Below, piece by piece: positions 13,027 to 59,748 of a DNA stretch of 64,000 nucleotides. A program made the position numbers and the translations under genes. The DNA comes from Chloroflexota bacterium (GTDB taxonomy: Bacteria > Chloroflexota > Anaerolineae > Anaerolineales > UBA11579). The stretch is taken from contig VRUJ01000012.1 of NCBI GenBank assembly GCA_019456165.1, positions 115 to 64,114 on the forward strand. The letters are read 5' to 3'. Every line of letters starts with the position of its first letter. The first letter of the stretch is position 1. Under the pieces are notes generated by a model that did no database searches, was not told the DNA's origin, and was given only the letters and a program-made list of their open reading frames with translations.

Positions 13027-13788
13027 CTATGAGCTCATCAATTTGTTGTCATTTCTGAAGAGCCTGGCTTTTGCTGCCTCATATTCCTCTTCGGTTATAG
13101 TTTGATACTTATACAACTCAGCCAGTTTTTCCAATTGATCAGCGATATCTATGCTGGGCTCTCCGCTTCGTTCAGGTTGACGAAGGTATTGTTGAAAAAT
13201 ACTGTATGCCTCATCCCCAGCTGTTTGGCCATAAAGTACAAACCCTAACCTAACATCTGGTAAAAACGTTAAATTCAACTTTACTAGACTTAGATTTTGG
13301 TGGGTTAACTCATATATTTCTCGTCGTATTCCTACCAAGTTGGCTAATGGGTTTTCTGTTTCAAGCCGATGTTCAGTCTCGTAAGTTCTCAGCGGATATG
13401 TTGGGCGGGAAAATATTAAACCATAATGTAGTCGGTCACCATGGAAACTTGCATCCACATATGGTCTCCCAGGTTTAGACCCCGAGGGGGAAATAAGACC
13501 GCCGGATAGAAGACTTAGAAGTATGGCCATGAATAGGAAACAACCATCCCCTGTTCGTAGGTGTGATTCGTATCGAACCTTAATAAACCGTCGATTAGTA
13601 ATAATTATGTAACCAAAATAATAATCATTTTCTCCCCATACAGAAAAGTGAGAATAATTTCCCGCCCAATTTACATTCTCCCCCTCTTGGATTAAGGCTT
13701 TATGCGTTTTTCGATAATCTGATAGATAGTGTTCACTAACTTGCGAGTTAATGGGTAGTCTCGGTTCGGTATCAACATTAGGTTTCAT
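13027..13788 (-). CDS. SHOCT domain-containing protein (N-terminal PH-like region)
   Basis: The C-terminus LEKLAELYKYQTITEEEYEAAKARLF is the SHOCT motif. The start is taken at the ATG after AAAGGA; the track ORF starts at TTG 13815. Confidence 0.55.
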   Translation of the reverse strand: MKPNVDTEPRLPINSQVSEHYLSDYRKTHKALIQEGENVNWAGNYSHFSVWGENDYYFGYIIITNRRFIKVRYESHLRTGDGCFLFMAILLSLLSGGLISPSGSKPGRPYVDASFHGDRLHYGLIFSRPTYPLRTYETEHRLETENPLANLVGIRREIYELTHQNLSLVKLNLTFLPDVRLGFVLYGQTAGDEAYSIFQQYLRQPERSGEPSIDIADQLEKLAELYKYQTITEEEYEAAKARLFRNDNKLMSS

Positions 13789-14136
13789 TTCTAATCCTTT
13801 TCCATCTTCATTCAATGGTCACAAAAGAGATATTATCATATTTCTGCTACAACCGGACCGCAATATTTCCAAACCATGTCATATGCTTCCTAGTTGTGCG
13901 ATCTTCAATAATTATCGGTGGAAAAATAAAAATTAAGGTGGTTCCCTTAAACCACCCAAGCACCCCATCCCAATTACGGTTTCCTGAAATAAGAAATAAG
14001 TTTGTATTCGACCACCACGGATTATTCGAGGTATTTGCGGTAAAATGTAGTCGCTCTTTACCAGTAGTTTCATGCAATCCGTCAATAAAAAAAAAAATAA
14101 GCCAAATTATTTTAATGCCAAAACACCACAATCCCA

Positions 14137-15257: not shown

Positions 15258-16148
15258 TTACTCCGAGGCTTCCTCGTACGGCGGCCATGGCACTAATCTC
15301 CATGCTGTGTAACCGTGTTTTTCAACTGTGTAAACCCGAGCGCTGGACGGCTCAAAGCAGCCGGGCTCGTCAATCACATCCACGTACAGCAAGTCAGAAC
15401 GAATGGGATAAAAGACGATCTGCCCATCTTGGCACAACCAGGCCTCTACCAGATAGCCGCGGTAATCATCCTCCGTCATCCATACGTACGCCCATTCGAT
15501 GCGCACTTCATCCCCATCCCTTGTGGCCCCTGCCCATGTAGGCGGCAAGTACAAGTCTGAAAGTGGCAGCCGGCCGTAATATTCACCAACGCTGAAGATA
15601 TCACCGTCAACCTGCACTAATTCAGTCTTGATCCAACAAGGCGTTGGGAAGCCCAATCCCTGAACGTAGATCCAGGTCCCATCTTTATTGCGGCCGACAA
15701 CTTCGAATAAGTAACCTTCAAAAAAGCCGTATTCGTACAGGTAAGCCGCACCTGGCCCATAACGGCAGTTAGTCTGCTCTAAAGCAACCCCGTCTGGGGG
15801 ATCGAATGTAGCTGTGGGTGTAACCGTGGGAGTATCGGAGGGTGTGGGAGTGATCGTAGCTGTATAGCGTGAGGTGGGTGTTGCCGTTGGATGGGGAATA
15901 GGTGTGGAGGTAGAAGTACTAGTCAAAGTGGGGGTGGGGGTTGAGGTGGATGTAGCGGTCTGAGTGAAAGTCGGGGAAGGACTGTAGGTTGAGGTGAACT
16001 CGGGAATCTCCGTTGGATCTTCGGCCAAACCGATTGCCAGCATATCCGTCTGGACTAATAGGAAGCCAACACAGACCACTCCCAAGATACCTACAAAAAA
16101 TGCCCCGATCACTTCTGGTTTCCTTATTAGAGAACGTAACTTTTGCAT
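15258..16148 (-). CDS. membrane-anchored protein with a Thr/Pro/Ser-rich linker and an SH3b-like domain
   Basis: It has an N-terminal TM helix, a low-complexity TSTSTPTPTLTSTSTSTP linker, and then CRYGPGAAYLYEYGFFEGYLFEVVGRNKDGTWIYV, which is SH3b-like. Confidence 0.55.
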   Translation of the reverse strand: MQKLRSLIRKPEVIGAFFVGILGVVCVGFLLVQTDMLAIGLAEDPTEIPEFTSTYSPSPTFTQTATSTSTPTPTLTSTSTSTPIPHPTATPTSRYTATITPTPSDTPTVTPTATFDPPDGVALEQTNCRYGPGAAYLYEYGFFEGYLFEVVGRNKDGTWIYVQGLGFPTPCWIKTELVQVDGDIFSVGEYYGRLPLSDLYLPPTWAGATRDGDEVRIEWAYVWMTEDDYRGYLVEAWLCQDGQIVFYPIRSDLLYVDVIDEPGCFEPSSARVYTVEKHGYTAWRLVPWPPYEEASE

Positions 16149-19693: not shown

Positions 19694-19722
19694 TTGAACA
19701 AACAAAACCTCTATACTATAAT
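19694..19722 (+). promoter_or_regulatory. near-consensus promoter TTGAAC-17-TATAAT driving the candidate small RNA
   Basis: The hexamers and 17-nt spacer were counted directly. Confidence 0.45.
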
Positions 19723-19728
19723 AAGAAA

Positions 19729-19940
19729 AGACGCCGGAGTAAGGGTAGTTCTTGCTGTCACATGAGCAGAGTTTTATACTCTATTAGTCTCAAATGACTT
19801 GATCAGCTACAATCGCTAAAAGAGGCGGTTGAGAGTGGTGGCAATGGCTACACTTCCAACAAATTTTTTATTAGACTAGCGGCCAACTAGCCTAAACCTA
19901 ATTATTTGTTTGAACCCCTTAAAGTTGCTCCGGCGTTTTT
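19729..19940 (+). ncRNA. candidate structured small RNA (~210 nt; identity unknown, a 6S-like architecture is possible)
   Basis: It starts about 7 nt after the -10 element. The 5' ACGCCGGAG pairs with the 3' CTCCGGCGT, which is followed by TTTTT. Further end-to-end pairs are TAAGGG/CCCTTA and GTTC/GAAC. An apical hairpin sits around 19826-19858. There is no ORF. Confidence 0.35.
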
Positions 19941-19950
19941 ATATTCCACC

Positions 19951-19979
19951 TTGACCTGCCTATCCCCAAAGACTACAAT
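19951..19979 (+). promoter_or_regulatory. promoter TTGACC-17-TACAAT of the SHMT-GcvT fusion gene
   Basis: The hexamers were read directly, about 40 nt upstream of the ATG. A GAGGAG RBS is present. Confidence 0.45.
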
Positions 19980-20018: not shown

Positions 20019-23000
20019 ATGGCCGATGCCCTTTTTCGCGGCTCATTAAAGGAATTGGACCCCGCCGTTTTCGAATTGACCCAAATCGAGGCTGAGCGGC
20101 AATACCGCCGCTTGATTTTGATCCCCAGCGAAAGCACTGCCCCCCTAGCCGTGCGTGAAGCTTTAGGCAGCGCATTCCAAAATATTTACGCCGAAGGCTA
20201 CCCGGGGGAAGCTACCCGATGGATGAGTGAGGGAGAAATATTAGATTTTGACGCTCGCTTAGCCCACTATCGCCGCTACTCTGATCCACGCTATTATAAG
20301 GGCACCGAATATGTCAACGCTATCGAAGCACTTGCCAGAAGACGCTGCGCAGAGACTTTCGCGGCCAACGGTATATCTGCGGATGATCTTTATGTCAACG
20401 TCCAGGCTCTATCTGGCGGCCCAGCCAATAACGCGGTTTATCATGCACTGGTAGAACCTGGAGATACCGTAATGGGCATGGACCTTTTGCACGGGGGTCA
20501 TCTCTCCCACGGCTCAAAGGTTAACCGCTCGGGGAAGTATTACGACATCCAGCATTACACTGTAGACCCAGAAACAGAAAAAATAGATTACGAAAGTATC
20601 CAGGAGTTGGCTCTCAAACATAAACCGAAGATGATCATTGGTGGGTTTTCATCTTATCCCTGGGCAGCAGATTGGGCAGCCCTGCGTGCTATCGCAGATT
20701 CGGTAGGTGCGTATCTATTCGCCGATATCGCCCACGTAGCCGGCCTGATAGCTGCAGGAGTTTACCCCTCCCCAGTTGGCTACGCTGATGTGATCACATC
20801 GACAACTCATAAATCCTTATTAGGGCCGCGCGGCGCTATCATCATGACCCATCATAAGCACCTTGCTCGTAAGATTGACCGGGCAGTTTTCCCCGGCGAA
20901 CAAGGTGGCCCTCACGTGAACGTCTTCGCAGGACTTGCTATCACCTTCAAGCTTGCTCAGACAAAACAGTTCCAAAGTTTGCAAAAACAGATTATCAAAA
21001 ATTGTAAGGTATTCACCAACCGTTTGGAAGAACGCGGTTTCCGTATCCCATTCGGCGGCAGCAACACACACCTGATGAATTTGGATGTTAAATCCATCGT
21101 TGGCCCAGATGACACAGCTCTCTCTGGTGATATGGCTGCCAGAATCTTGGATCATGCAGGCATAGTTGTCAACCGCAACACGATCCCTGGTGATAAAGGT
21201 GCACTCAATCCTTCAGGTATACGCATGGGGACTCCCTGGATCACGCAGCGGGGCTTTAAGGAAAAGGCGACCATTCAACTTGCTGATATTATCGCGGATG
21301 TATTAAATGCTTGCACACCATTCCGCAGAAGTTCTAGAAGACGTCCGAAGCAACGCTCTGTGGTGGATTTCAATATTCTTGAAGATGCCAAGTTGCGAGT
21401 GCGCGATCTGGCCGAGGCTGCCGGGATTGATTTCGAACCCACGAACCACGGCTACCCACACTTTTACTACATTGATGATAAATCAACAAATGAAGGTGAG
21501 CGTGTAGCCCTTGATATACGGGGTAAGGAAGTCCGACGATTAATGAACACAGCTCTAAGCAGCGATGTGGAAGCATTATCACCCGATGAGGTACAAGCAT
21601 CCCGCTTACACACACCACAAGGTGAAATTGATTGTACTTTGAGATGTATTTCATCTAATGAATTCCGCATAAGCCTGCCATCAGAACAATTCGGGCTCGC
21701 AGCTGCCTGGCTGCGCGCATTATCAGACGGCTTTATAGCCATTGACGAAGACATCACCCGCAAACCACCCGGACCAGTATCAGTGCGTGTCTCTAATGAA
21801 CAACCCGATGAACACATTGATGTATCCCCGCTAGACAATTCCAAGCCATTTTACATTGGCATTTCTAAAGGATCGGGCAAACCCCTCCCGGCATTTGAAT
21901 GGAAAGATACGAACGATAAGGACCTCAAACACACACCCCTGAATGAAACCCACCGCAAGTTGGGAGCCAAGATGGTGCCGTTTGCTGGATGGGATATGCC
22001 CGTTTGGTATGGATCGGTAATAGAGGAGCACAAAGCTGTGCGTGAGTCCGCCGGCCTTTTCGACGTTTCACACATGGGTGTTTACCAGGCAGAAGGACGG
22101 CAGGCAAGTACATTTCTGGATAGTGTCTGCGGAAACCATATTGGCGGCCTGGGATTAGGCCAATCTGCTTACACCCATTTTCTCGACCCTGAGGCAAACG
22201 TGATTGATGATCTGCTTGTGTACCGCCGGGACAAGGAAAAATATCTACTTGTGGTCAACGCCTCCAATGATGACAAAGATTGGATCTGGCTGAACGGAGT
22301 GAAGGATGGTGTTGTACGCATTGATAGTGCGCATCCTTGGGCAAAAGCCTTTGGCCGCGAGGTGATATTACGCAACCTGCGGGATCCGGCAGTTGGAGAT
22401 GAAATGCGCGTAGATATCGCCCTGCAGGGACCCCACTCGCGGGACATCTTGCTATCCCTAAAGACCAGCAAGGAGACCCAAGATCGCATCATGCAGCTCA
22501 AACGTACAGAATTATGTGAGGCTAAAATCGGGGGTTTCGATCTTGTGGTTTCCCGGACGGGTTACACCGGAGAAAAGATGGCCTTTGAACTTTTCGTTCA
22601 TCCTGAACAGTCAGTGGCATTGTGGAATTCACTGCTCAAAGACGGAGAACCTTTAGGGATAAGACCATGTGGTTTGGGAGCGCGCGACTCATTACGCACT
22701 GAAGCTGGTCTGCCGTTATACGGACAGGAGATGGGCGGTGAATTAAACCTGGGAGTGGCCGAGGCAGGATTCGGCTACTACGTCAAGACGCACAAACCTT
22801 GGTTCATCGGTCGAGATGCCTTTATCAAACGCGAGGCTGAGCGCAAATCCGTAGTGGTCCGATTTCGTTTCAACGAAAAAGGCGTGCGCATGGCACACCT
22901 GGGAGACCCTGTGGTAGATAAACGCGGCCGTGTTATCGGCCAAGTAACCAGCTGCGCGATTGACAGCCAAGGCTTATTAACCGGTCAAGCCTTTATTGAT

Positions 23001-23147
23001 CTCAAGCACGCCAAGAAGGACACCCCGATCTTCATATTCCAGAGTGCATCAGACAAACCTGAAAGAGCTCTCTCAGAACTAAAACTGGGGGAACGAATCT
23101 CAATACCAACTGCGGCTAGTGTTGTCAGCCGGTTTTTGAAAACTTAA
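20019..23147 (+). CDS. fusion protein: serine hydroxymethyltransferase (N-terminal) + degenerate GcvT-like linker domain + aminomethyltransferase GcvT (C-terminal)
   Basis: It is one uninterrupted 1042-codon ORF. Residues 1-440 carry SHMT motifs (LIPSES, GGHLSHG, TSTTHKSLLGPRG with the PLP lysine). Residues ~640-1042 are GcvT (HRKLGAKMVPFAGWDMPVWYG, LFDVSHMG, SRTGYTGE, GLGARDSLRTEAGLPLYG). Confidence 0.85.
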   Translation: MADALFRGSLKELDPAVFELTQIEAERQYRRLILIPSESTAPLAVREALGSAFQNIYAEGYPGEATRWMSEGEILDFDARLAHYRRYSDPRYYKGTEYVNAIEALARRRCAETFAANGISADDLYVNVQALSGGPANNAVYHALVEPGDTVMGMDLLHGGHLSHGSKVNRSGKYYDIQHYTVDPETEKIDYESIQELALKHKPKMIIGGFSSYPWAADWAALRAIADSVGAYLFADIAHVAGLIAAGVYPSPVGYADVITSTTHKSLLGPRGAIIMTHHKHLARKIDRAVFPGEQGGPHVNVFAGLAITFKLAQTKQFQSLQKQIIKNCKVFTNRLEERGFRIPFGGSNTHLMNLDVKSIVGPDDTALSGDMAARILDHAGIVVNRNTIPGDKGALNPSGIRMGTPWITQRGFKEKATIQLADIIADVLNACTPFRRSSRRRPKQRSVVDFNILEDAKLRVRDLAEAAGIDFEPTNHGYPHFYYIDDKSTNEGERVALDIRGKEVRRLMNTALSSDVEALSPDEVQASRLHTPQGEIDCTLRCISSNEFRISLPSEQFGLAAAWLRALSDGFIAIDEDITRKPPGPVSVRVSNEQPDEHIDVSPLDNSKPFYIGISKGSGKPLPAFEWKDTNDKDLKHTPLNETHRKLGAKMVPFAGWDMPVWYGSVIEEHKAVRESAGLFDVSHMGVYQAEGRQASTFLDSVCGNHIGGLGLGQSAYTHFLDPEANVIDDLLVYRRDKEKYLLVVNASNDDKDWIWLNGVKDGVVRIDSAHPWAKAFGREVILRNLRDPAVGDEMRVDIALQGPHSRDILLSLKTSKETQDRIMQLKRTELCEAKIGGFDLVVSRTGYTGEKMAFELFVHPEQSVALWNSLLKDGEPLGIRPCGLGARDSLRTEAGLPLYGQEMGGELNLGVAEAGFGYYVKTHKPWFIGRDAFIKREAERKSVVVRFRFNEKGVRMAHLGDPVVDKRGRVIGQVTSCAIDSQGLLTGQAFIDLKHAKKDTPIFIFQSASDKPERALSELKLGERISIPTAASVVSRFLKT

Positions 23148-26068: not shown

Positions 26069-27454
26069 ATGGAACCAAAAAACAAAGCAATTGCTTTAAA
26101 CCCCTTTAATCGCTCAATTACCTATGCACTTATATTTGGAGCTGTTCTTACCTCTGCCTGTGGGCAAGCTGCAGAAACAATTGCAGCAACATCCACTACA
26201 ACTGCCTCCATCGTTCCCGAAAATACGGTAGAGCCAACCCAACCTCCCACAATAGAACCCAGCCCAACGATTGAGCCATATTATTACATAGATACTTTCT
26301 TGGCCGTGGAAACCGATGAGATACCCGAATTTTCAAACGGATGGGAGATAAGGGAAGCTATTATTACGATTTTCTCAGAAGTTGATAGCTCAGATCCTTT
26401 TTACAGAGAAATTCAAGAGGTCGTTTCTGAATTTGCGAGGACATCTAGTTTAGTTTCCGGAGAAGATGGCGTTGATTACTCAACAGCTGTTTTGGAAATT
26501 GAAGGGGGTAATGGAGAAAAGGGGGCAATTGGTTTGGTGGTGGATGTAGAAGGGAATTATTACTTTGCTCTCTCTCAAAACAATGCGCAAGAAGCTGATT
26601 ACATCTCAAGCGAAAACAGGGGCATCTTTTTCTGGCAAGGAGCAGGGGACTACAGGCAAGATGGGAGTGTCAACCTGGGTCTTGCCCTCCCAGATGGGGC
26701 TGTAAGGGCAATTTTCAGCGTCGCAGAAGACCATGGGGTATCTTATATTTCTCCATTCGCAGATGGAACAAAAACCTCCCTTGGCAGCTTAGAAGATTTA
26801 GAAACTCAAGCTGCAGGAATGTTGGCTCCTTTGGTAGAGGCCGAACAGCCCTTGGAAATAATTGAGTTTATGGCTAATGGAGAGATGGTAGAAGGGAGGG
26901 TATTCGAGATTTCAGAATTGTGGGAGGGAGAAATACCTCCAAATTTATATGCAACTGGAACATATCATATATGGGGGGTTCGGGAATCATTTGTTGATGA
27001 TCGTGGATTGCATTATCGAAGTATAGTTTTCGGGTTTTTACGACAATATAGAGTGGTAGAATTTGATCTCCAGGACGGTGGCATAGTAAAACAAATGTTG
27101 TTCGACATGGTCTATGCAAATTACAACGGAGAAGAGACGTTTGTTCGTTTTCGGATCGGTGACATTGACCTCAGATCTGATTGGTACCCTATTGTTAATA
27201 ATCCTCACTTAGGTAGTATGTATACGGTGGTATTCAGTTTTATACCTCCTGAAAGTTCGACGACCTCACTAGATCTTATCAACGGTTCATTAGGACAAGG
27301 CCCTTGCACAACTTTTGAGCGGTGTGCCTTAGATTATGGTGGGGTTGGGGATATCAAATTATCCATCGACGAACTCATAAATATATTGGACAGAGGAGAA
27401 GGAGAGTTTGTTGATTTATCTAACTCTACCGTTTTATCAAATGTTGATAATTAA
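26069..27454 (+). CDS. hypothetical lipoprotein
   Basis: The 461-aa ORF has a signal peptide with an LTSACGQ lipobox. I recognise no family. Confidence 0.55.
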   Translation: MEPKNKAIALNPFNRSITYALIFGAVLTSACGQAAETIAATSTTTASIVPENTVEPTQPPTIEPSPTIEPYYYIDTFLAVETDEIPEFSNGWEIREAIITIFSEVDSSDPFYREIQEVVSEFARTSSLVSGEDGVDYSTAVLEIEGGNGEKGAIGLVVDVEGNYYFALSQNNAQEADYISSENRGIFFWQGAGDYRQDGSVNLGLALPDGAVRAIFSVAEDHGVSYISPFADGTKTSLGSLEDLETQAAGMLAPLVEAEQPLEIIEFMANGEMVEGRVFEISELWEGEIPPNLYATGTYHIWGVRESFVDDRGLHYRSIVFGFLRQYRVVEFDLQDGGIVKQMLFDMVYANYNGEETFVRFRIGDIDLRSDWYPIVNNPHLGSMYTVVFSFIPPESSTTSLDLINGSLGQGPCTTFERCALDYGGVGDIKLSIDELINILDRGEGEFVDLSNSTVLSNVDN

Positions 27455-30388: not shown

Positions 30389-31870
30389 TCAATCCCCTTC
30401 AACCGCCTTAATAAACTCCGGGACTTGACAGCAAAATACTAATTGTTTCGCAGCTTGAACCTCATCTAAACGTGCAAAGGGAGTGTTGTGCGGTGCTGTT
30501 AGCAGTATTTCCGGATCTGTATGAGCTTCTTCAGCTATCTGCCGCATGGCATCAACAAATGCATCTAAAGTTTCCAGCGTTTCTGTTTCGGTAGGCTCGA
30601 TCATCAAGGCTTCTTTCACGATCAACGGGAAATAATATGTCGGGGGGTGAAAACCAAAGTCCATCAATCTTTTGGCAATATCAAAAGCATGGATATCTGG
30701 CGCATCTGGCCAACGGCCCTCAAACACAAATTCGTGCATACACACTCGATCAAAAGGTAGGTGGTAGATATCCTTCAATTGAGACATCAAGTAATTGGCG
30801 TTTAGCACCGCTCCTTCGGAAACTTCCCGCAAACCAGATGCGCCGTGCATCAAAATATAAGTAAAAGCACGCACAAATATCCCGAAATGCCCATGGAATG
30901 ATTTTACCCGGCCGATGCTCTTTTGAGGTTGCAGAAATCCGTATAAAGGGGGGTTATCATCTGCTCCCTGGTCAATAATTCCCACAATAGGGCCGGGCAA
31001 GAAATCAACCAAATGTTCGGCGACCCCAACTGGTCCAGACCCAGGACCTCCACCACCGTGAGGTGTGGAGAATGTTTTATGCAAGTTGTAATGCAATACA
31101 TCGAATCCTAAATCACCTGGGCGCACAATTCCAAGCAACGCATTCATGTTTGCCCCATCGCCATAAACCAACCCGCCAGCTTCGTGCACAAGTTCGATAA
31201 CTTCTAGGGTTTGTTCCTCAAACAAACCCAAGGTGTTCGGATTTGTCAGCATCAATCCTGCCAAATTTTGGTCGCATTCAGCTCGTAGGGCTTCCAGATC
31301 TACATTGCCGCGTTCGTCGGATGGCAATTCAACCACCTGCATCCCGCTCATTGAGGAAGTGGCTGGATTAGTACCGTGCGCGGAATCAGGTATTAGGATC
31401 TTATTACGCTGGGTTTCCCCGATGGAATGCAGATACTCGCGGATAATTGAAACACCCGTCAATTCACCGTGTGCTCCGGCCGCAGGTTGCAAGGTCACAC
31501 CGGCAAAGCCCCCAATTTCCTTAAGGAACTCTTGCAGCAGATGCATTAGTATTAAACTCCCTTGAACAGTTTCCAAGGGTTGCAGCGGGTGCACGTGTGC
31601 AAACCCAGGTAAGCGCGCCGCCTGTTCATTGATCTTAGGGTTATACTTCATCGTACAGGAACCTAGAGGGTAAAAGCCTGTATCTACCCCATGATTAAGT
31701 TGGGATAGGCGTGTGAAATGGCGAATGACTTCTGGCTCGCTCACTTCAGGAAGGGGTAATTCTTTGCGTAAAAACTTTTCGGGCAAGTCCGTGTGCGGCA
31801 CGTCAGGTTCTGGAAAACGAACTCCCCGCCGCCCTAGTGAAGAAAGATCGTATATCAACGGCTCAACCAT
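30389..31870 (-). CDS. gcvPB: glycine dehydrogenase (decarboxylating) subunit 2
   Basis: It is a full-length GcvPB-like sequence ([27 protein letters not shown] with the PLP lysine). The ATG overlaps the gcvPA stop (ATGGTTGA) and follows GGAGGTG. Confidence 0.9.
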
Positions 31871-33206
31871 GAGGCACCTCCGCCAATACACTGACAAGAT
31901 AATCGATCTCATCTTGTGAATTAGTCTCTGTGACCGCGAATAGCAAACAGTCTGCTAGTTCCGGAGAATCCAATCCTAGATCGTAGCCGCCAATTATGTC
32001 ATGTTCCAGTAGATCCTGATTAATTTCGGCGGCTGGACGCGGCCCGCGCATTACAAATTCATGGAAGAAAGGTTCGCTGGACCAAAGTTCAAAACCGGGT
32101 AATTTTGCGATCTGGTCAGCCGTATAATGCGCCTTTTGGTAACATAATTCAGCGACCTCACGCAAACCTTGTTTACCCAATACGCTAAGATAAACTGTTG
32201 CCGCCAAGGTCATAAGCCCCTGGTTGGTACAGATATTGGAACTCGCCTTTTCTCGGCGGATGTGCTGCTCACGCGTACTCAAGGTAAGCACAAAACCGCG
32301 CTGTCCATTAGTATCTGTCGTTTCGCCGACAAGCCTGCCCGCCAGGCTGCGTACGTAATTCTGCCTGGTCGCTAAAATACCAAGATATGGGCCGCCATAA
32401 GAAAGCGGGATGCCTAAAGGTTGTCCCTCTCCTGTTACGATGTCGGCTCCAAAATCGCCGGGGGGTTTGAGCATGCCAAGGGATGTAGGGTTTACTGAAA
32501 CTGCTAGCAATGAGCCAGCTTCATGGACAGTTTCAGCTAAGGCAGCATAATCATAAATGCGGCCAAAAAAGTCTGGGTACTGGACGTAAACTAGAGCAGT
32601 ATCCTCATCCAGATATTCCAATAATGCTTCCGGACCTGAGCTTAAATCAAGATCCTCACCCACAAAGGTTGTGTCAGAACCCAATGCATAGGTTTTTAAT
32701 GTCGCCCGATATTGGGGGTGTAACGATGGAGAAAGAATCACTTTGCTGCGCTTGTTGCGATGGATCAAGCGTGCCATATTGACAGCTTCTGCTGCAGCGG
32801 TAGCTCCATCGTAATGCGAGGCGTTGGAGACTTCCATCCCGGTAAGGTATGTAATTAAACTTTGGTATTCAAATACAGCCTGCAGTGTGCCTTGAGAAAT
32901 TTCTGGTTGATATGGCGTATAAGCGGTATAAAATTCTCCACGAGATAAAACCGCATCTACAGCCGCAGGAATATAGTGGCTATACGCACCAGCCCCTAAA
33001 AATGAGGGCATTTCACTGGGATTCTCATTTGCTGAGGCAATTTCCTGTAGATCTGCCAATACTTCAATCTCTGTAAGTGCATCCGGGAGATCTAGAGCTG
33101 GATAGCGGTATTTTTCAGGTACAACCTCAAACAGTTCTTCGATTGACCTAGCCCCGATCTTCTTCAACATCGAGGTGCGGTTTGCGTCAGTTTGCGGGTG
33201 AAACAT
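31863..33206 (-). CDS. gcvPA: glycine dehydrogenase (decarboxylating) subunit 1
   Basis: It looks collinear with GcvPA over its full length ([26 protein letters not shown]). Confidence 0.9.
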
Positions 33207-33208
33207 AC

Positions 33209-33598
33209 TTAACTGCGCTCCTTGGTATTGGTTTCGTAATCAGAGGCATTCATCAACCCATCAAGCTCACTCGAGTCTGCGATCTCTATCTTGACCAGCC
33301 ATCCTGCCCCATAGGGATCACTATTAACTAATTCGGGAGTCTCCAGCAAATCTTCATTGACTTCCAAGATTTTCCCACCGATGGGTAGAAATAGATCAGA
33401 AGCTGCTTTAACAGATTCCACCGTGCCGAATACCTCACCTTTTTCCCCAGATTCGCCTTCCGTGAGAGTTATTTCAAGGTAGACGATATCTGATAGCTGA
33501 TCCTGGGCAAAATCTGTAATACCAATAGTTCCTGTATTGCCATCTACTTGGACCCATTCGTCTTCTTTAGAATATTTCAATTCAGATGGAAAATTCAT
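33209..33598 (-). CDS. gcvH: glycine cleavage system H protein
   Basis: The 129-aa protein has the lipoyl-lysine motif VESVKAASD and GAGWLVKI. Confidence 0.9.
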   Translation of the reverse strand: MNFPSELKYSKEDEWVQVDGNTGTIGITDFAQDQLSDIVYLEITLTEGESGEKGEVFGTVESVKAASDLFLPIGGKILEVNEDLLETPELVNSDPYGAGWLVKIEIADSSELDGLMNASDYETNTKERS

Positions 33599-33623: not shown

Positions 33624-33660
33624 AAAAGAAAAAGGGCGCATACCTATAGAGCATGCGCCC
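33624..33660 (-). terminator. intrinsic terminator forming the expression platform of the glycine riboswitch
   Basis: The reverse strand reads GGGCGCAT-(11-nt loop)-ATGCGCCC followed by TTTTTCTTTT. It lies between the second aptamer and the gcvH RBS. Confidence 0.7.
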
Positions 33661-33860
33661 TCTGTCGTAAACCTGAGAGATTCGCACCGTTTACCGGTAC
33701 TTGCCCCTTCGGTGTCTGGGTAAAACCTTCTTCCCCAGACTTTCCAGAGGTGTAAGCGGAAACAGGGTCCTTTTTACCTGAGAGTTTCGAGAGGCGTTGT
33801 CACTGCCTCACTTGCCCCTTCGGTGTCCAGCATAAGCTGGCTCTCTCCCCTGTTTCCGTT
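33661..33860 (-). promoter_or_regulatory. tandem glycine riboswitch (two aptamers)
   Basis: The reverse strand contains GGGGAGAGAGCC...ACACCGAAGGGGCAAG...CTCTCAGG enclosed by the P1 helix CGGAAACAGGG/CCCTGTTTCCG. A second aptamer follows: CTCTGGAAAG...ACACCGAAGGGGCAAG...CTCTCAGG. Confidence 0.9.
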
Positions 33861-40052: not shown

Positions 40053-40103
40053 ATTTCCAAGAATAATTGAATTTACTTATATCTTATAATTGGAGATTGA
40101 TTG

Positions 40104-40436
40104 ATGGACGAACAATTATTAAATACGATTACACTAATGTCTCAGGCTCTTCATGATATCCGCAACTTACTCAAGATAAGCACAGGTGAAAATGTCAAGG
40201 CTTTTTTAGAAAAAACTCTAGTTTCAGAACAAGAGAAATTAGCCTATGAACTAACTGATGGAGAAAATACACAAACACAGATAGCTAAAAAGGTAAATGT
40301 TACTCAACCAGCCGTATCTTTTTGGTGGCGAAAGTGGAATCAAATTAATCTCTCAATTGATTCACCGGCCTACCCTGGAAGACAAGAAGCTGTTTTTAGT
40401 TTATCTGAATATGGAATCAAGGTGAAAAACAATTAA
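40104..40436 (+). CDS. small HTH protein, paralog 1 of 3
   Basis: 110 aa, with a GGAG RBS. The C-terminal half is KLAYELTDGENTQTQIAKKVNVTQPAVSFWWRKWNQ. This is a homeodomain-like HTH like that found in resolvase/transposase N-termini. Confidence 0.6.
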   Translation: MDEQLLNTITLMSQALHDIRNLLKISTGENVKAFLEKTLVSEQEKLAYELTDGENTQTQIAKKVNVTQPAVSFWWRKWNQINLSIDSPAYPGRQEAVFSLSEYGIKVKNN

Positions 40437-40446
40437 GGAGTTCCAG

Positions 40447-40827
40447 GTGCAAGAAGACCTACGCAATCAAAAAAACGAAAACCAGAGCGAAGTTTCAAAA
40501 ATATTGAAAGAATTAGCAGTAATACACACGCGAATCGAAAAATGGCTTCGTTTTTTTGCTCAATCTGAACTAGAAAAGCGTCTTTCTAATATATTTTCTA
40601 CTAATGAAGAACTCATTATCTATGAGCTAACGAATGGGAAAAGGAGTTCGAGGGAGATTGCAAAGCTTGTCAATAAAAGCCATAACTGGATTGTAGACCT
40701 GTGGAAAAAATGGGAAGATGATAACAATATAGTTGAACCAATTGGCCCCAGGAAACCTTATTCAGCAAAATATACATTACCAGAATTAGCTATTTTATTT
40801 GGAAAATCAGAACTAAAGGAGGGCTAA
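40447..40827 (+). CDS. small HTH protein, paralog 2 of 3
   Basis: 126 aa, with a GTG start 6 nt after AAGGAG. It reads ELIIYELTNGKRSSREIAKLVNKSHNWIVDLWKKWEDD...PRKPYSAKYTLPELAILFG. Confidence 0.6.
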   Translation: MQEDLRNQKNENQSEVSKILKELAVIHTRIEKWLRFFAQSELEKRLSNIFSTNEELIIYELTNGKRSSREIAKLVNKSHNWIVDLWKKWEDDNNIVEPIGPRKPYSAKYTLPELAILFGKSELKEG

Positions 40828-41169
40828 ATGCCGCAAGAAATTAATCAGCAAGAAATAACCACTGTACTAAAAGACATTGCCGCTTCGTTGCGTGCATTGA
40901 TCCAACCTCAAATTGAATCCCGATTGTCCCACTTTTTTCCCTCGAGTGAAGAAATGCTCGCATATAAATTATCTGACGGTACACGGAGCACACGCGCAAT
41001 TAGTGATATTGTTGGAGCAAGCCATATGACAATTGGCAATTGGTGGAGAAAATGGGAAGAGGATTATTCAATTATTGAATCTTTAGGAAAAAATAAGCCG
41101 TATAAAGCGAAATATTCCCTCTCAAAACTCGCGATTATGTTTGGAAAGGAGAATAACGATGGCAAATGA
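40828..41169 (+). CDS. small HTH protein, paralog 3 of 3
   Basis: 113 aa. The ATG directly abuts the previous stop (TAAATG). It reads EMLAYKLSDGTRSTRAISDIVGASHMTIGNWWRKWEED...KNKPYKAKYSLSKLAIMFG. Confidence 0.6.
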   Translation: MPQEINQQEITTVLKDIAASLRALIQPQIESRLSHFFPSSEEMLAYKLSDGTRSTRAISDIVGASHMTIGNWWRKWEEDYSIIESLGKNKPYKAKYSLSKLAIMFGKENNDGK

Positions 41170-41383
41170 GGATAACTTACACGAAATATCTATTGCCATA
41201 AACCAACTAGCAAAATTGCAGGCTTATAGTATTGTTCAAAGTGATGAGTGGATAGCTAAGAAAAATGTAGAAAAAATATTATTTCTCAACAGTCTTGGTT
41301 TTAGACCAAAAGATATCAGTGAAATTATTCAAACGACCATAGGGACTGTGAAAAAAGAAATTTCAACTCATAAAAATAAATAA
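41159..41383 (+). CDS. small HTH protein (fourth, more divergent)
   Basis: 74 aa counted from the ATG after AAGGAG, overlapping the previous stop. It reads EKILFLNSLGFRPKDISEIIQTTIGTVKKEIS, which is LuxR/sigma-region-4-like. Confidence 0.5.
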   Translation: MANEDNLHEISIAINQLAKLQAYSIVQSDEWIAKKNVEKILFLNSLGFRPKDISEIIQTTIGTVKKEISTHKNK

Positions 41384-41401
41384 TATTAATAGGAAAAATT
41401 T

Positions 41402-42184
41402 ATGTCAAAAAGTAGTCGAATAGACCCTGAAATAATAAAAAAAATTATAAAAGCAATGGGATTGAAACAACGCCAAACGTACAATAAGATTCACTCTGTT
41501 GCAAATATGTATAATATCCCCCAAAATTTTGCGGCAATTAAGTTGGCTTCTGAGCTTGGGATTGGGATACAAAAATATGCTACCGATGAGTATTATGCTG
41601 CTTTGTCAGGTGTAAGAGTAAAACATTCTCAAGTTCCAAAAAATAATAACGGTGAATTACCTACACAAGTCACCAGAAAGATTGTTGTTTCAAAACAGCA
41701 CCCACTCGTTGAAATTGATCTATCGAGTGTTGTTAATCCTGAACTAATAAAAATCTTAGAACGAGATATTTCCGAATTAAATTGTGCTATCAAGATTGGT
41801 ATTGAAAAAACTAAAAAGACTTGTATGATTTTATCGGGTTCTATTGCCGAGGCTTTACTTCTAGAGCGATTAACCAGAGATAATTCCATCGAACAAGAAG
41901 CAATACAGGTTGCTTCTACACTTAAATATCCTGGAAAACCAAGTAAACTCAATAATTTAGAATCTTGGGTTTTAGTATCTCTTGTTGAGGTTGGAAGCAA
42001 ATTAAATACACCAGTTTTACCAGCTGATTCATTAGATCAAATCGGGCAATTGCGGAAATGGCGAAATCTGATACACCCTGGCAGAGAGTTAAAGGATAAT
42101 AGCAATAAAAGAATTAGGCCCACAAAAACTCGTGCAAAAAATGCTATTGGATTTCTTGAATTTGTTGCAAGTGAGTTAAACTAG
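41402..42184 (+). CDS. 260-aa protein with a helical C-terminal domain carrying a HEPN-like motif (LRKWRNLIHPG)
   Basis: It is the last ORF of the operon. The C-terminal ~130 aa are predicted helical by eye. They carry R-x6-H / RN-x2-H (RKWRNLIH), followed by a helix (AKNAIGFLEFV), as in HEPN families. The N-terminal ~70 aa form a small helical module of unknown type. Confidence 0.45.
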   Translation: MSKSSRIDPEIIKKIIKAMGLKQRQTYNKIHSVANMYNIPQNFAAIKLASELGIGIQKYATDEYYAALSGVRVKHSQVPKNNNGELPTQVTRKIVVSKQHPLVEIDLSSVVNPELIKILERDISELNCAIKIGIEKTKKTCMILSGSIAEALLLERLTRDNSIEQEAIQVASTLKYPGKPSKLNNLESWVLVSLVEVGSKLNTPVLPADSLDQIGQLRKWRNLIHPGRELKDNSNKRIRPTKTRAKNAIGFLEFVASELN

Positions 42185-58155: not shown

Positions 58156-59748
58156 CTATTCTTTTCCGTTTTCTGATTCTTCTATGCGAAAGTGTAAATC
58201 ACCTACGTGTACAAACCAAGGGCGGGAAGCCAGTAGAGCCATGATTGGTTCTGGTGGGCAGCGCAAAGTGGCATTCAAAGCTGAATACAATTCACTGGCA
58301 TGCACATGACTTTGGGGGTTAAGTTTCGCCAACTCACGCATTTTCTGTACAACAACCTCTTCAAGGGGATGAGGGTTGCCCTGCCTTTGCTCCCAGGCTG
58401 TATCCAGGGCATTAATTTCCTTGGGCATGGCGATCATCATTCGTTCATCAAAAGTGGTGGATACAGGTTGCTTGAGAGTAGCATAGACTATGCCGCCATC
58501 TGCACCTACCAGAGCAGTTCGCACCCACTCCTTGGCAGAACGGTGTGATTCTACATCCACGATGACTTCTCCGGGTTGGGTTCCACGCTGCAGGCGTATA
58601 TAACTTCCGGGCATAAGCCCTTTTTGTTTGTACCAATCTCCCAATCCATAAACATAACGCTCAAGACGCACAACCCAACCTGGGAATTTTTCACCTGTCT
58701 TCCCATCGATAAGTATAAAACGAATCCTGGGCGCTTCGTAGGCTGTGGGAAATAGCTTACTCATACGTGAAGATAAAGGTAGTGTACCAGTTCGCCAGTG
58801 AGGGTATATCAGACGAATTTCAACCTCATTCACATCTGCTGTGTACTCGCCAAGAGGCGAATGCTCATCGTCCAACCGGCTTGATAATTCTAGCATTTGA
58901 TCGGTTAGAACATTCTCGTCGTAATCAAACGGCTCATAGCGCAGATAGAGAGGTGTCTTCTGAACTCCACCTGGTTCTTCACGCTTCAAAAACCAAGCAA
59001 CTTCGCCCGCAGGACCAACTTCGTCGAAACGCTGGTCTTCTTGTAATGCCATATCCAATGAAAATTCAGCTAAATGCGAGTTTACACCTTCTGGCAAACC
59101 AACGTGGGTGATTAATTCGGCGGTCCTCATTGGTCCGCCCCCTTCCATATCAAGCGCAGCTTCAGCGAGATTGAGATTTCCTAAGTTAACGTCTACAATT
59201 AAAGTTTTTGGGAACCAATTCCCGGCTATATAAACAAAATCTGGGTTTTTAGATAAGTTACTAATCAGACGTTCGGCCAAAATATTCCCGTAAGTTTCCA
59301 GAACCTTTTCTGGTATCAACAAAGGATCATCAATGTCTTCTTCAACAGGATTGTTCAAAATATGCTGTTCCAACCCAGTCGCGAATTCCCGGATTTCACC
59401 ATTTTGAAACTCAACTTCAATGACTTCAAACTCCTCTGGGGTGATACTCATCCCTGGGCGAACACCCAATACTTTGGCAGTTTGCCATTCCATGGCTGGA
59501 AAAATCAAACTTTCGCCCGCTTCGTATGTTTCCTCAGGTATATAAACTCGGCTGCCAGTAATTTTTTGTTCTTCGGCAGTTTGCCGTTCGTGTTGGATGC
59601 GCTCGGCTATTAAAACTGCGATCAGGTTGTGAGGGGATAATGGTGTTTCTAATTCTAAAAGATGGTTATTAATAAACTCAATATCCGTTTCCTTGAGTGC
59701 GAAATTATCCCAATATTCTTCGTTCAATGTAAAATCAGTTAACATCAT
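58156..59748 (-). CDS. hypothetical protein, 530 aa
   Basis: It is a long uninterrupted ORF with normal composition. I recognise no family. Confidence 0.5.
   Translation of the reverse strand: MMLTDFTLNEEYWDNFALKETDIEFINNHLLELETPLSPHNLIAVLIAERIQHERQTAEEQKITGSRVYIPEETYEAGESLIFPAMEWQTAKVLGVRPGMSITPEEFEVIEVEFQNGEIREFATGLEQHILNNPVEEDIDDPLLIPEKVLETYGNILAERLISNLSKNPDFVYIAGNWFPKTLIVDVNLGNLNLAEAALDMEGGGPMRTAELITHVGLPEGVNSHLAEFSLDMALQEDQRFDEVGPAGEVAWFLKREEPGGVQKTPLYLRYEPFDYDENVLTDQMLELSSRLDDEHSPLGEYTADVNEVEIRLIYPHWRTGTLPLSSRMSKLFPTAYEAPRIRFILIDGKTGEKFPGWVVRLERYVYGLGDWYKQKGLMPGSYIRLQRGTQPGEVIVDVESHRSAKEWVRTALVGADGGIVYATLKQPVSTTFDERMMIAMPKEINALDTAWEQRQGNPHPLEEVVVQKMRELAKLNPQSHVHASELYSALNATLRCPPEPIMALLASRPWFVHVGDLHFRIEESENGKE

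Follow-up and report, generated by a model that had tools for sequence, protein, structure and literature searches.

A serine hydroxymethyltransferase joined to a putative glycine cleavage T-protein through a degenerate GcvT sub-domain in Anaerolineae-type Chloroflexota

In this study, we describe a gene in a 64-kb stretch of DNA (hereafter the window; contig VRUJ01000012.1) from a Chloroflexota metagenome-assembled genome (MAG), which joins serine hydroxymethyltransferase (SHMT) and the T-protein of the glycine cleavage system (GCS), GcvT, in one polypeptide of 1042 amino acids (aa), with what we read as a decayed GcvT sub-domain between them. To judge from its sequence, the product is very probably simply a bifunctional SHMT/T enzyme. 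The explanation that best accounts for the data as a whole, and which we consider probable, is that an active SHMT and an active T-protein are held together by a rigid connector, provide this lineage with its T-protein and carry out a coupled conversion of glycine to serine. That a true channel, or a captive cofactor, connects the two sites is a good deal less likely.

The open reading frame (ORF; 20019..23147, + strand) begins with an ATG, runs through 1042 codons without interruption and is preceded by a GAGGAG Shine-Dalgarno sequence 8 nucleotides (nt) 5′ of the start codon; M1 is invariant among homologues, whose N-termini coincide. With homologues clustered at 90% identity, more than 120 clusters cover 100% of the query at 65–71% identity (1035–1067 aa), and a second search, seeded with a Leptolinea-type member, contributed 120 further clusters. 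For locus comparisons we used the best 80 of at least 593 confirmed candidate stretches from species-representative genomes, with flanks of up to ±10 kb. All 80 are essentially full-length (43–70% identity), and their hosts include Anaerolineales, Anaerolineaceae, Aggregatilineales, Phototrophicaceae, Ca. Villigracilis, Ca. Desulfolinea and Leptolinea. Because the full-length architecture recurs across clusters and species genomes, the sequence comparisons indicate that the fusion is widespread, old and stable within Anaerolineae-type Chloroflexota, and no assembly artefact.

The initial annotation of the window had proposed a single-polypeptide SHMT–GcvT fusion and left its spread open. The continuous frame, profiles of both families above their cut-offs and full-length homologues bear out the proposal; Pfam finds SHMT and GCV_T together on one chain, and the motifs quoted in that annotation are present (TSTTHKSLLGPRG, aa 259–271; GEATRW...RYYKG, aa 63–95; ALDIRGKEV...AAAWL, aa 497–565). 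As to spread, the architecture proves common across Anaerolineae-type genomes. Its caveat that the arrangement might be common and already characterised holds in the first part only, since a full-text literature search returned no description of a natural SHMT–GcvT fusion. Likewise, a PDB sequence search and Foldseek matched single domains only and revealed no solved structure with the fused architecture, and no cultured isolate with the fusion is named among the top matches or cluster members. Automatic annotation labels the database records either 'GcvT' or 'serine/glycine hydroxymethyltransferase'. As far as we have found, the arrangement in which a T-protein is fused to its downstream consumer SHMT, and which includes both a decayed-GcvT adaptor and an insertion in an SHMT loop, is new, although its chemistry is not of a categorically new type.

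Some full-length fusions (43–58% identity) occur in bins with other labels, namely L061 (Ca. Fraserbacteria), L071 and L072 ('Thermotogae' MAGs), L073, and L058 (a Herpetosiphon sp. MAG); where such bins are labelled outside Anaerolineae, horizontal transfer or mis-binning could be the reason. Two loci carry a pair of fusion paralogues a few kb apart (L004, 10001–13132 and 16918–20034; L024, 10001–13117 and 3431–6214). One of these two genomes is the closed chromosome CP070708.1, and in the second L024 copy the SHMT match starts only at residue 114.

The N-terminal half scores 432.7 bits with Pfam SHMT (E 1.3e-129; curated cut-off 27 bits) and 445.9 bits with the NCBIfam SHMT model NF000586 (cut-off 335). 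Its alignment to E. coli SHMT (1DFO, 348 bits) recovers T-T-H-K (K265), FADIAHVAG (D236, H239), HGGHLSHGS (H161, H164) and SGIRMGTP (R402), together with the Y57-A-E59-G-Y-P-G and R-Y-Y93 elements; K265, H264, D236, H239, H161 and R402 align to E. coli K229, H228, D200, H203, H126 and R363. The pyridoxal phosphate (PLP) lysine, K265, is encoded by nt 20811–20813. Among 73 full-length relatives translated from the related loci (43–100% identity), K265, H264, D236, H239, H161, H164, R402, Y57, E59 and Y93 are invariant (73/73) and Y92 is nearly so (Y/F). Structurally, the SHMT part of the AlphaFold2 (AF2) model matches solved SHMTs with TMt values of 0.93–0.96 in Foldseek. SHMT functions as an obligate dimer whose active sites form where the subunits meet; in our monomer model the predicted local distance difference test (pLDDT) falls below 50 only in loops 158–165 and 292–297, which are SHMT dimer-interface active-site loops, as would be expected when a single chain of an obligate dimer is modelled.

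Within this half, 27–28 extra residues separate G-Y-P-G (aa 60–63) from R-Y-Y (aa 91–93). Among the PDB SHMTs listed, no best-stretch alignment spans the insertion, each starting only at aa 85–91, and the two general SHMT profiles break into separate matches on either side of it, in agreement with the earlier claim that canonical GlyA lacks these residues (aa 63–90). AF2 predicts helices at 64–68, 71–75 and 77–84, and several positions are strongly conserved (R86 in 73/73 relatives, R85 in 72/73, L81 in 71/73, D76 in 70/73). The insertion lies within the Tyr55/Glu57...Tyr65 loop (E. coli numbering). In canonical SHMT the corresponding loop enters the active site of the partner subunit beside the folate pocket, and for this reason the insertion could influence folate entry or touch another domain. 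Kinship with the long PRK13580 type of SHMT was considered and rejected: the C-terminal match is not significant on its own (E 0.14), and the insertion falls outside that model.

The C-terminal half is recognised by Pfam GCV_T (PF01571; E 1.7e-76, 257.3 bits, cut-off 25.6), by NF001567 for GcvT (301.7 bits, just above its cut-off of 300) and by the equivalog TIGR00528 (251.7 bits, cut-off 235.85). Alignments to the T-proteins of B. subtilis (1YX2, 207 bits), T. maritima (1WOO, 185 bits) and E. coli (1VLO, 156 bits) show the D730-D731 pair, VVNASN, SRTGYTGE and GLGARDSLRTEAG. The putative catalytic aspartate, D731, is encoded by nt 22209–22211, and R957 is likely the arginine that contacts H-protein. 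D730/D731, N747/N750, GYTGE 848–852 (E852) and GLGARD 885–890 (R889) are invariant in 73/73 relatives. A C-terminal beta-barrel, divergent in sequence, is predicted by AF2 at aa 944–1036, and the relatives P0185 and P0260 pass the cut-off of the corresponding profile, GCV_T_C (PF08669, 25.9 bits). The earlier description of a complete C-terminal GcvT appears to hold. The catalytic roles given here to SHMT and T-protein residues are assigned after the published structures. Because the catalytic positions are invariant or nearly so in the 73 relatives, the alignments indicate that both catalytic centres are under purifying selection.

Between the two enzymes lies a conserved connector of ~200 aa that folds confidently in AF2 (a separate model of aa 431–640 has a pLDDT of 80.3). 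A degenerate extra copy of the GcvT/YgfZ half-domain had been suspected here, and five lines of evidence bear this out. Pfam GCV_T matches weakly at aa 498–577 (E 0.014). HHalign aligns the middle region to the protein's own GcvT region with 91.9% probability (E 6.9e-7), placing aa 497–579 on aa 688–771. The order of AF2 secondary-structure elements, beta-alpha-beta-beta-beta-alpha, equals that of aa 687–763. A Foldseek search of the PDB with the model of aa 431–640 returns the GcvT family throughout ranks 1–41 (~100 columns; root-mean-square deviation 2.3–2.7 Å), comprising T-proteins, DMGDH, DMGO, sarcosine oxidase, YgfZ, Iba57, LigM and DmdA. Finally, in the divergent members L061 and L068 a tblastn search with the GcvT domain also matches the middle region, at 26–28% identity. 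The catalytic DD and N-A-S-N motifs are gone from the middle copy, which has a conserved signature of its own (G-Y-P-H-F 478–482, W564-L-R-x-L-S-D-G571, G585 and K609). In our reading, a catalytic sub-domain was duplicated and one copy then degenerated to serve as a structural adaptor. AF2 models the full-length protein as a compact unit (pLDDT 87.4; predicted template modelling score 0.85), and this confidence argues for a fixed inter-domain geometry, as predicted, and not for beads on a string.

A profile of the middle region, run against 1.84 billion sequences, matches 352 representatives, 233 of them at E ≤ 1e-10. In the full-length matches (1027–1250 aa) it always lies between SHMT and GcvT, and no clear case of the adaptor outside the SHMT–GcvT architecture was seen among the profile matches. 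Shorter matches (600–870 aa) were considered as alternative architectures and set aside: seven of the ten examined carry C-terminal pieces of SHMT and are N-terminally truncated fragments, and the other three (P0183, P0260 and P0138), which carry no SHMT piece, may be fragments or SHMT-less forms. A longer sub-family (P0185, P0191, P0217, P0218, P0228, P0238 and P0265; 1173–1250 aa) exceeds the others by 130–200 aa; its SHMT begins ~15–30 residues later, and the stretch from the decayed sub-domain to GcvT is ~100 aa longer. Longer members (1145–1250 aa) do not contain extra decayed copies, each having exactly one, plus a weak match on the true GcvT sub-domain.

In the window, a gcvH-PA-PB operon without gcvT lies 7.2 kb downstream of the fusion on the opposite strand, convergent with it, and by tblastn neither the window nor any of the 80 loci contains a stand-alone SHMT or GcvT. 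The initial annotation had named the fused copy as the only gcvT of the window and placed gcvH-PA-PB 7 kb away under another promoter, and this is what we find. T-less gcvH-PA-PB clusters occur within 10 kb of the fusion in 26 of the 80 loci, and in 21 of the 38 that have at least 9 kb on both sides; they are mostly convergent to it and lie 30 nt to 8 kb away. Two loci, L056 and L070, have riboswitch, gcvH-PA-PB and fusion in this order on a single strand. There, 130 nt (L056) and 99 nt (L070) separate gcvPB from the fusion, and the L070 gap holds no terminator- or promoter-like site. The gene neighbourhood ties the fusion strongly to the glycine cleavage system, and the fusion most likely serves as the T-protein of the Anaerolineae-type lineage.

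Upstream of gcvH, the window contains a tandem glycine riboswitch with aptamers at 33755–33860 and 33659–33750 (55.2 and 36.9 bits, the second seen only in the sensitive search). It is followed by a GC-rich terminator hairpin with a U-run (33660–33624), whose 5′ arm overlaps the P1 end of aptamer 2 by 2 nt. In its layout, this leader corresponds to glycine-ON gcv leaders. A glycine riboswitch also precedes gcvH in 6/6 of the related loci tested.

Combining these observations, we infer from sequence two enzyme activities, a glycine-to-serine direction and some benefit from proximity or channelling. Under glycine excess, the riboswitch would turn on the H- and P-proteins, which would bring aminomethyl-lipoyl-H to the T domain; there, NH3 would be freed and the one-carbon (C1) unit placed on tetrahydrofolate (THF). 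The 5,10-methylene-THF so formed would be consumed by the SHMT domain of the same dimeric protein, turning a second glycine into serine, and this step would hand THF back to the T site in a short local THF/methylene-THF cycle. The net reaction would be 2 Gly + NAD+ -> Ser + CO2 + NH3 + NADH. High glycine favours serine formation in the SHMT equilibrium. The SHMT half may also be the housekeeping SHMT of the cell, needed constitutively, which would explain why the fusion usually stands outside the riboswitch transcript.

Several observations weigh against this interpretation. Most genomes have the fusion and the gcv operon in convergent orientation and not in one transcript, so that co-regulation by glycine is not general. 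Stand-alone glyA or gcvT genes may exist elsewhere in fusion-bearing genomes, and L004 and L024 each hold two fusion paralogues. The N-terminus of E. coli T-protein contributes to H-protein binding, and in the fusion it is tethered. GCV_T_C reaches just 14.2 bits in the fusion, below its cut-off; this sub-threshold barrel profile is the only soft point in the family assignments, which by sequence place each half in the classical SHMT or GcvT family.

The rival that survives best, to which we give a minor share of probability, is a fusion for co-expression without folate hand-over. The halves would make methylene-THF in parallel, gaining only a 1:1 stoichiometry and co-localisation, and folate would exchange with the bulk. 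A housekeeping SHMT would usually run from serine to glycine, and in this direction the glycine that the two systems share goes to P-protein and not to T, so that nothing passes between the fused sites. Moreover, transcription of the fusion mostly does not depend on the glycine riboswitch. However, the conserved rigid connector and the conserved insertion in the SHMT active-site loop exceed the needs of a simple tether, and GCS partners placed behind a glycine-ON-type riboswitch layout would imply high glycine, with the SHMT equilibrium towards serine.

The same riboswitch bears on the reductive direction, which we regard as quite improbable. As a glycine synthase, the T domain would consume methylene-THF, NH3 and reduced H-protein to form glycine, and SHMT would add a second methylene-THF to give serine. 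Both reactions are reversible, the two enzymes follow one another in the reductive glycine pathway and many Anaerolineae are anaerobes. Yet both sites would then compete for methylene-THF with no cofactor cycle gained; the partner operon stands behind a tandem riboswitch and terminator in the layout of glycine-induced catabolic gcv operons; and formate-THF ligase, folD and other genes of the reductive pathway are not among the conserved neighbours in the related loci.

It is very unlikely that the C-terminal half is a different folate enzyme of the GcvT family, such as DMGDH, sarcosine oxidase, DmdA, LigM or trimethylamine N-oxide (TMAO) demethylase, feeding C1 units to SHMT. GcvT-family domains have repeatedly been recruited into fusions, and weak matches to such families are seen here, but the GcvT equivalog cut-off is passed while demethylase and oxidase scores fall 5–20 fold under theirs (TMAO demethylase 160.6 bits against 1100, SoxA 109.3 against 1164, DmdA 60.6 against 410, LigM 32.4 against 580, with DesA also far below). 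Moreover, the closest solved relatives are bona fide T-proteins, synteny with gcvH-PA-PB clusters lacking a T gene is conserved, and Pfam finds no DAO/FAD or other substrate-oxidising domain in the fusion. An assembly, frameshift or gene-calling artefact joining two genes has a negligible chance of being right even for a window taken from a MAG, being refuted by a continuous ORF of ~1040 aa in hundreds of independent assemblies, closed chromosomes included, and by a connector that is itself conserved and confidently folded.

Returning to coupled glycine-to-serine conversion by two active, rigidly linked domains, a bolder form of this reading, which we consider doubtful, takes the fusion for a 'glycine-to-serine synthase' complete in itself. 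Together, the family-specific loop insertion and the decayed sub-domain would form a conduit or cradle for a captive (poly)glutamylated folate, which would swing from the T site to the SHMT site and back, much as a prosthetic group does. If so, glycine catabolism would be insulated from the free one-carbon pool, and the fusion would be the first natural, structurally tractable case of GCS–SHMT channelling.

Comparison with known systems helps to put the fusion into context. Like canonical GlyA (E. coli 1DFO; ~42% structure-based identity, TMt 0.93 to the AF2 model), it has the PLP, substrate and folate-site motifs, to which it adds the helical insertion of 27–28 aa and ~610 C-terminal residues. 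With stand-alone GcvT (1YX2, 1WOO, 1VLO/3A8I) it shares full-length homology, the catalytic Asp, Asn, GYTGE and GLGARD, and the association with gcvH and gcvP; it differs in that the T N-terminus is not free and continues from the linker and decayed sub-domain, and in a ~25-aa insertion around aa 765–795, a divergent C-terminal barrel and a gene displaced from the gcv operon. Other GcvT-domain fusions (dimethylglycine oxidase (DMGO) and dehydrogenase (DMGDH), sarcosine oxidase alpha, TMAO demethylase) likewise join a folate domain to a partner catalytic domain, and in DMGO an internal cavity reportedly passes the C1 intermediate to THF. Their partner, however, acts upstream and supplies the folate domain with a small group, iminium or formaldehyde, whereas in the present fusion SHMT is the downstream enzyme and would need to take over the entire folate cofactor; an FAD domain is also lacking here. 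Dihydrofolate reductase–thymidylate synthase and formiminotransferase-cyclodeaminase each catalyse two successive folate-dependent steps within a single chain, and the folate made at the first site is taken up by the second; they have no kinship to the fusion in sequence or fold, and channelling is demonstrated in them but a hypothesis here. A metabolic parallel is the glycine decarboxylase–SHMT couple of plant mitochondria, which serves photorespiration and performs the same conversion (2 Gly -> Ser + CO2 + NH3 + NADH) with a THF/methylene-THF cycle, from separate proteins instead of one chain. Physical channelling in that couple is debated.

The hand-over of methylene-THF from T-protein to SHMT, long discussed for plant mitochondria, is also relevant to the engineering of reductive glycine and serine pathways. 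A natural covalent SHMT–T enzyme would make the question addressable on one polypeptide and could offer a ready-made part for synthetic C1 metabolism. The fusion also corrects the annotation of a large uncultured lineage: hundreds of entries bear the name of just one half, 'GcvT' or 'SHMT', and the other function may wrongly be scored as missing when Anaerolineae pathways are reconstructed. Beyond this family, the connector would be a clear example of a catalytic sub-domain that was duplicated and then decayed into a structural connector.

Table 1. Position of the fusion gene, its parts and associated features in the window
Feature	Coordinates	Strand	Remarks
Promoter-like TTGACC-17-TACAAT	19951..19979	+	40 nt 5′ of the start codon; consensus match only
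Whole fusion gene	20019..23147	+	1042 aa plus stop; NCBI protein MBW8010996.1
SHMT domain, aa 1–431	20019..21311	+	Pfam, NCBIfam, residue alignments, AF2
SHMT insertion, aa 63–90	20205..20288	+	Family-specific, 27–28 aa, helical
Post-SHMT extension, aa 432–494	21312..21500	+	Beta-hairpin, helix 451–468, loop with conserved G-Y-P-H-F (aa 478–482)
Degenerate GcvT sub-domain copy, aa 495–590	21501..21788	+	Beta-alpha-beta-beta-beta-alpha; signature W564-L-R-x-L-S-D-G571
Linker into GcvT, aa 591–632	21789..21914	+	K609 invariant, F626 nearly invariant
Complete GcvT/T-protein, aa 633–1042	21915..23144	+	Profiles, T-protein alignments, AF2, conservation
gcvPB (P-protein subunit 2)	30389..31912	-	
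gcvPA (P-protein subunit 1)	31863..33206	-	
gcvH (lipoyl H-protein)	33209..33598	-	First gene of the T-less gcv operon
Tandem glycine riboswitch and terminator hairpin	33624..33860	-	Upstream of gcvH-PA-PB

The leader of the fusion gene contains a 217-nt segment (19727–19943, + strand) predicted to form a closed multi-branch fold (-71.9 kcal/mol, z -4.2), in which a long closing helix (GACGCCGGAG...CUCCGGCGUUUUU) is followed by a U-run. Promoter-like sites flank it on both sides (19694–19722 and 19951–19979). A regulatory RNA of a known family was rejected, as Rfam gave no match in the 440-nt leader even at E ≤ 10 and no sequence conservation of the fold was found upstream of the fusion in the 80 related loci; the fold could represent a small RNA in its own right, or else a leader specific to this lineage.

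Among other neighbours of the fusion, genes for an EF-G-like GTPase (29 loci), FtsH (26 loci) and a DUF255/thioredoxin-domain protein (23 loci) recur in the Aggregatilineales/Phototrophicaceae group (for example L040 6262–8613, L060 1126–3294 and L048 190–2421), which probably reflects lineage synteny and not a functional link. L-protein, lipoate ligase, serine dehydratase and folD were not found as conserved neighbours in the related loci.

Elsewhere in the window, four ORFs have no Pfam match at the thresholds used: 26069–27454 (+; 461 aa), 58156–59748 (-; 530 aa), 15258–16148 (-; 296 aa) and 13027–13815 (-; 262 aa). A low-GC islet at 40101–42184 (+), with a GC content of 0.34 against ~0.46 elsewhere, looks like a foreign or mobile insert. 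It holds three tandem paralogous helix-turn-helix-like ORFs of 111, 126 and 113 aa, which have the motif ...Y-E/K-L-T/S-D/N-G...W-W/K-K-W... in common and are followed by ORFs of 80 and 260 aa.

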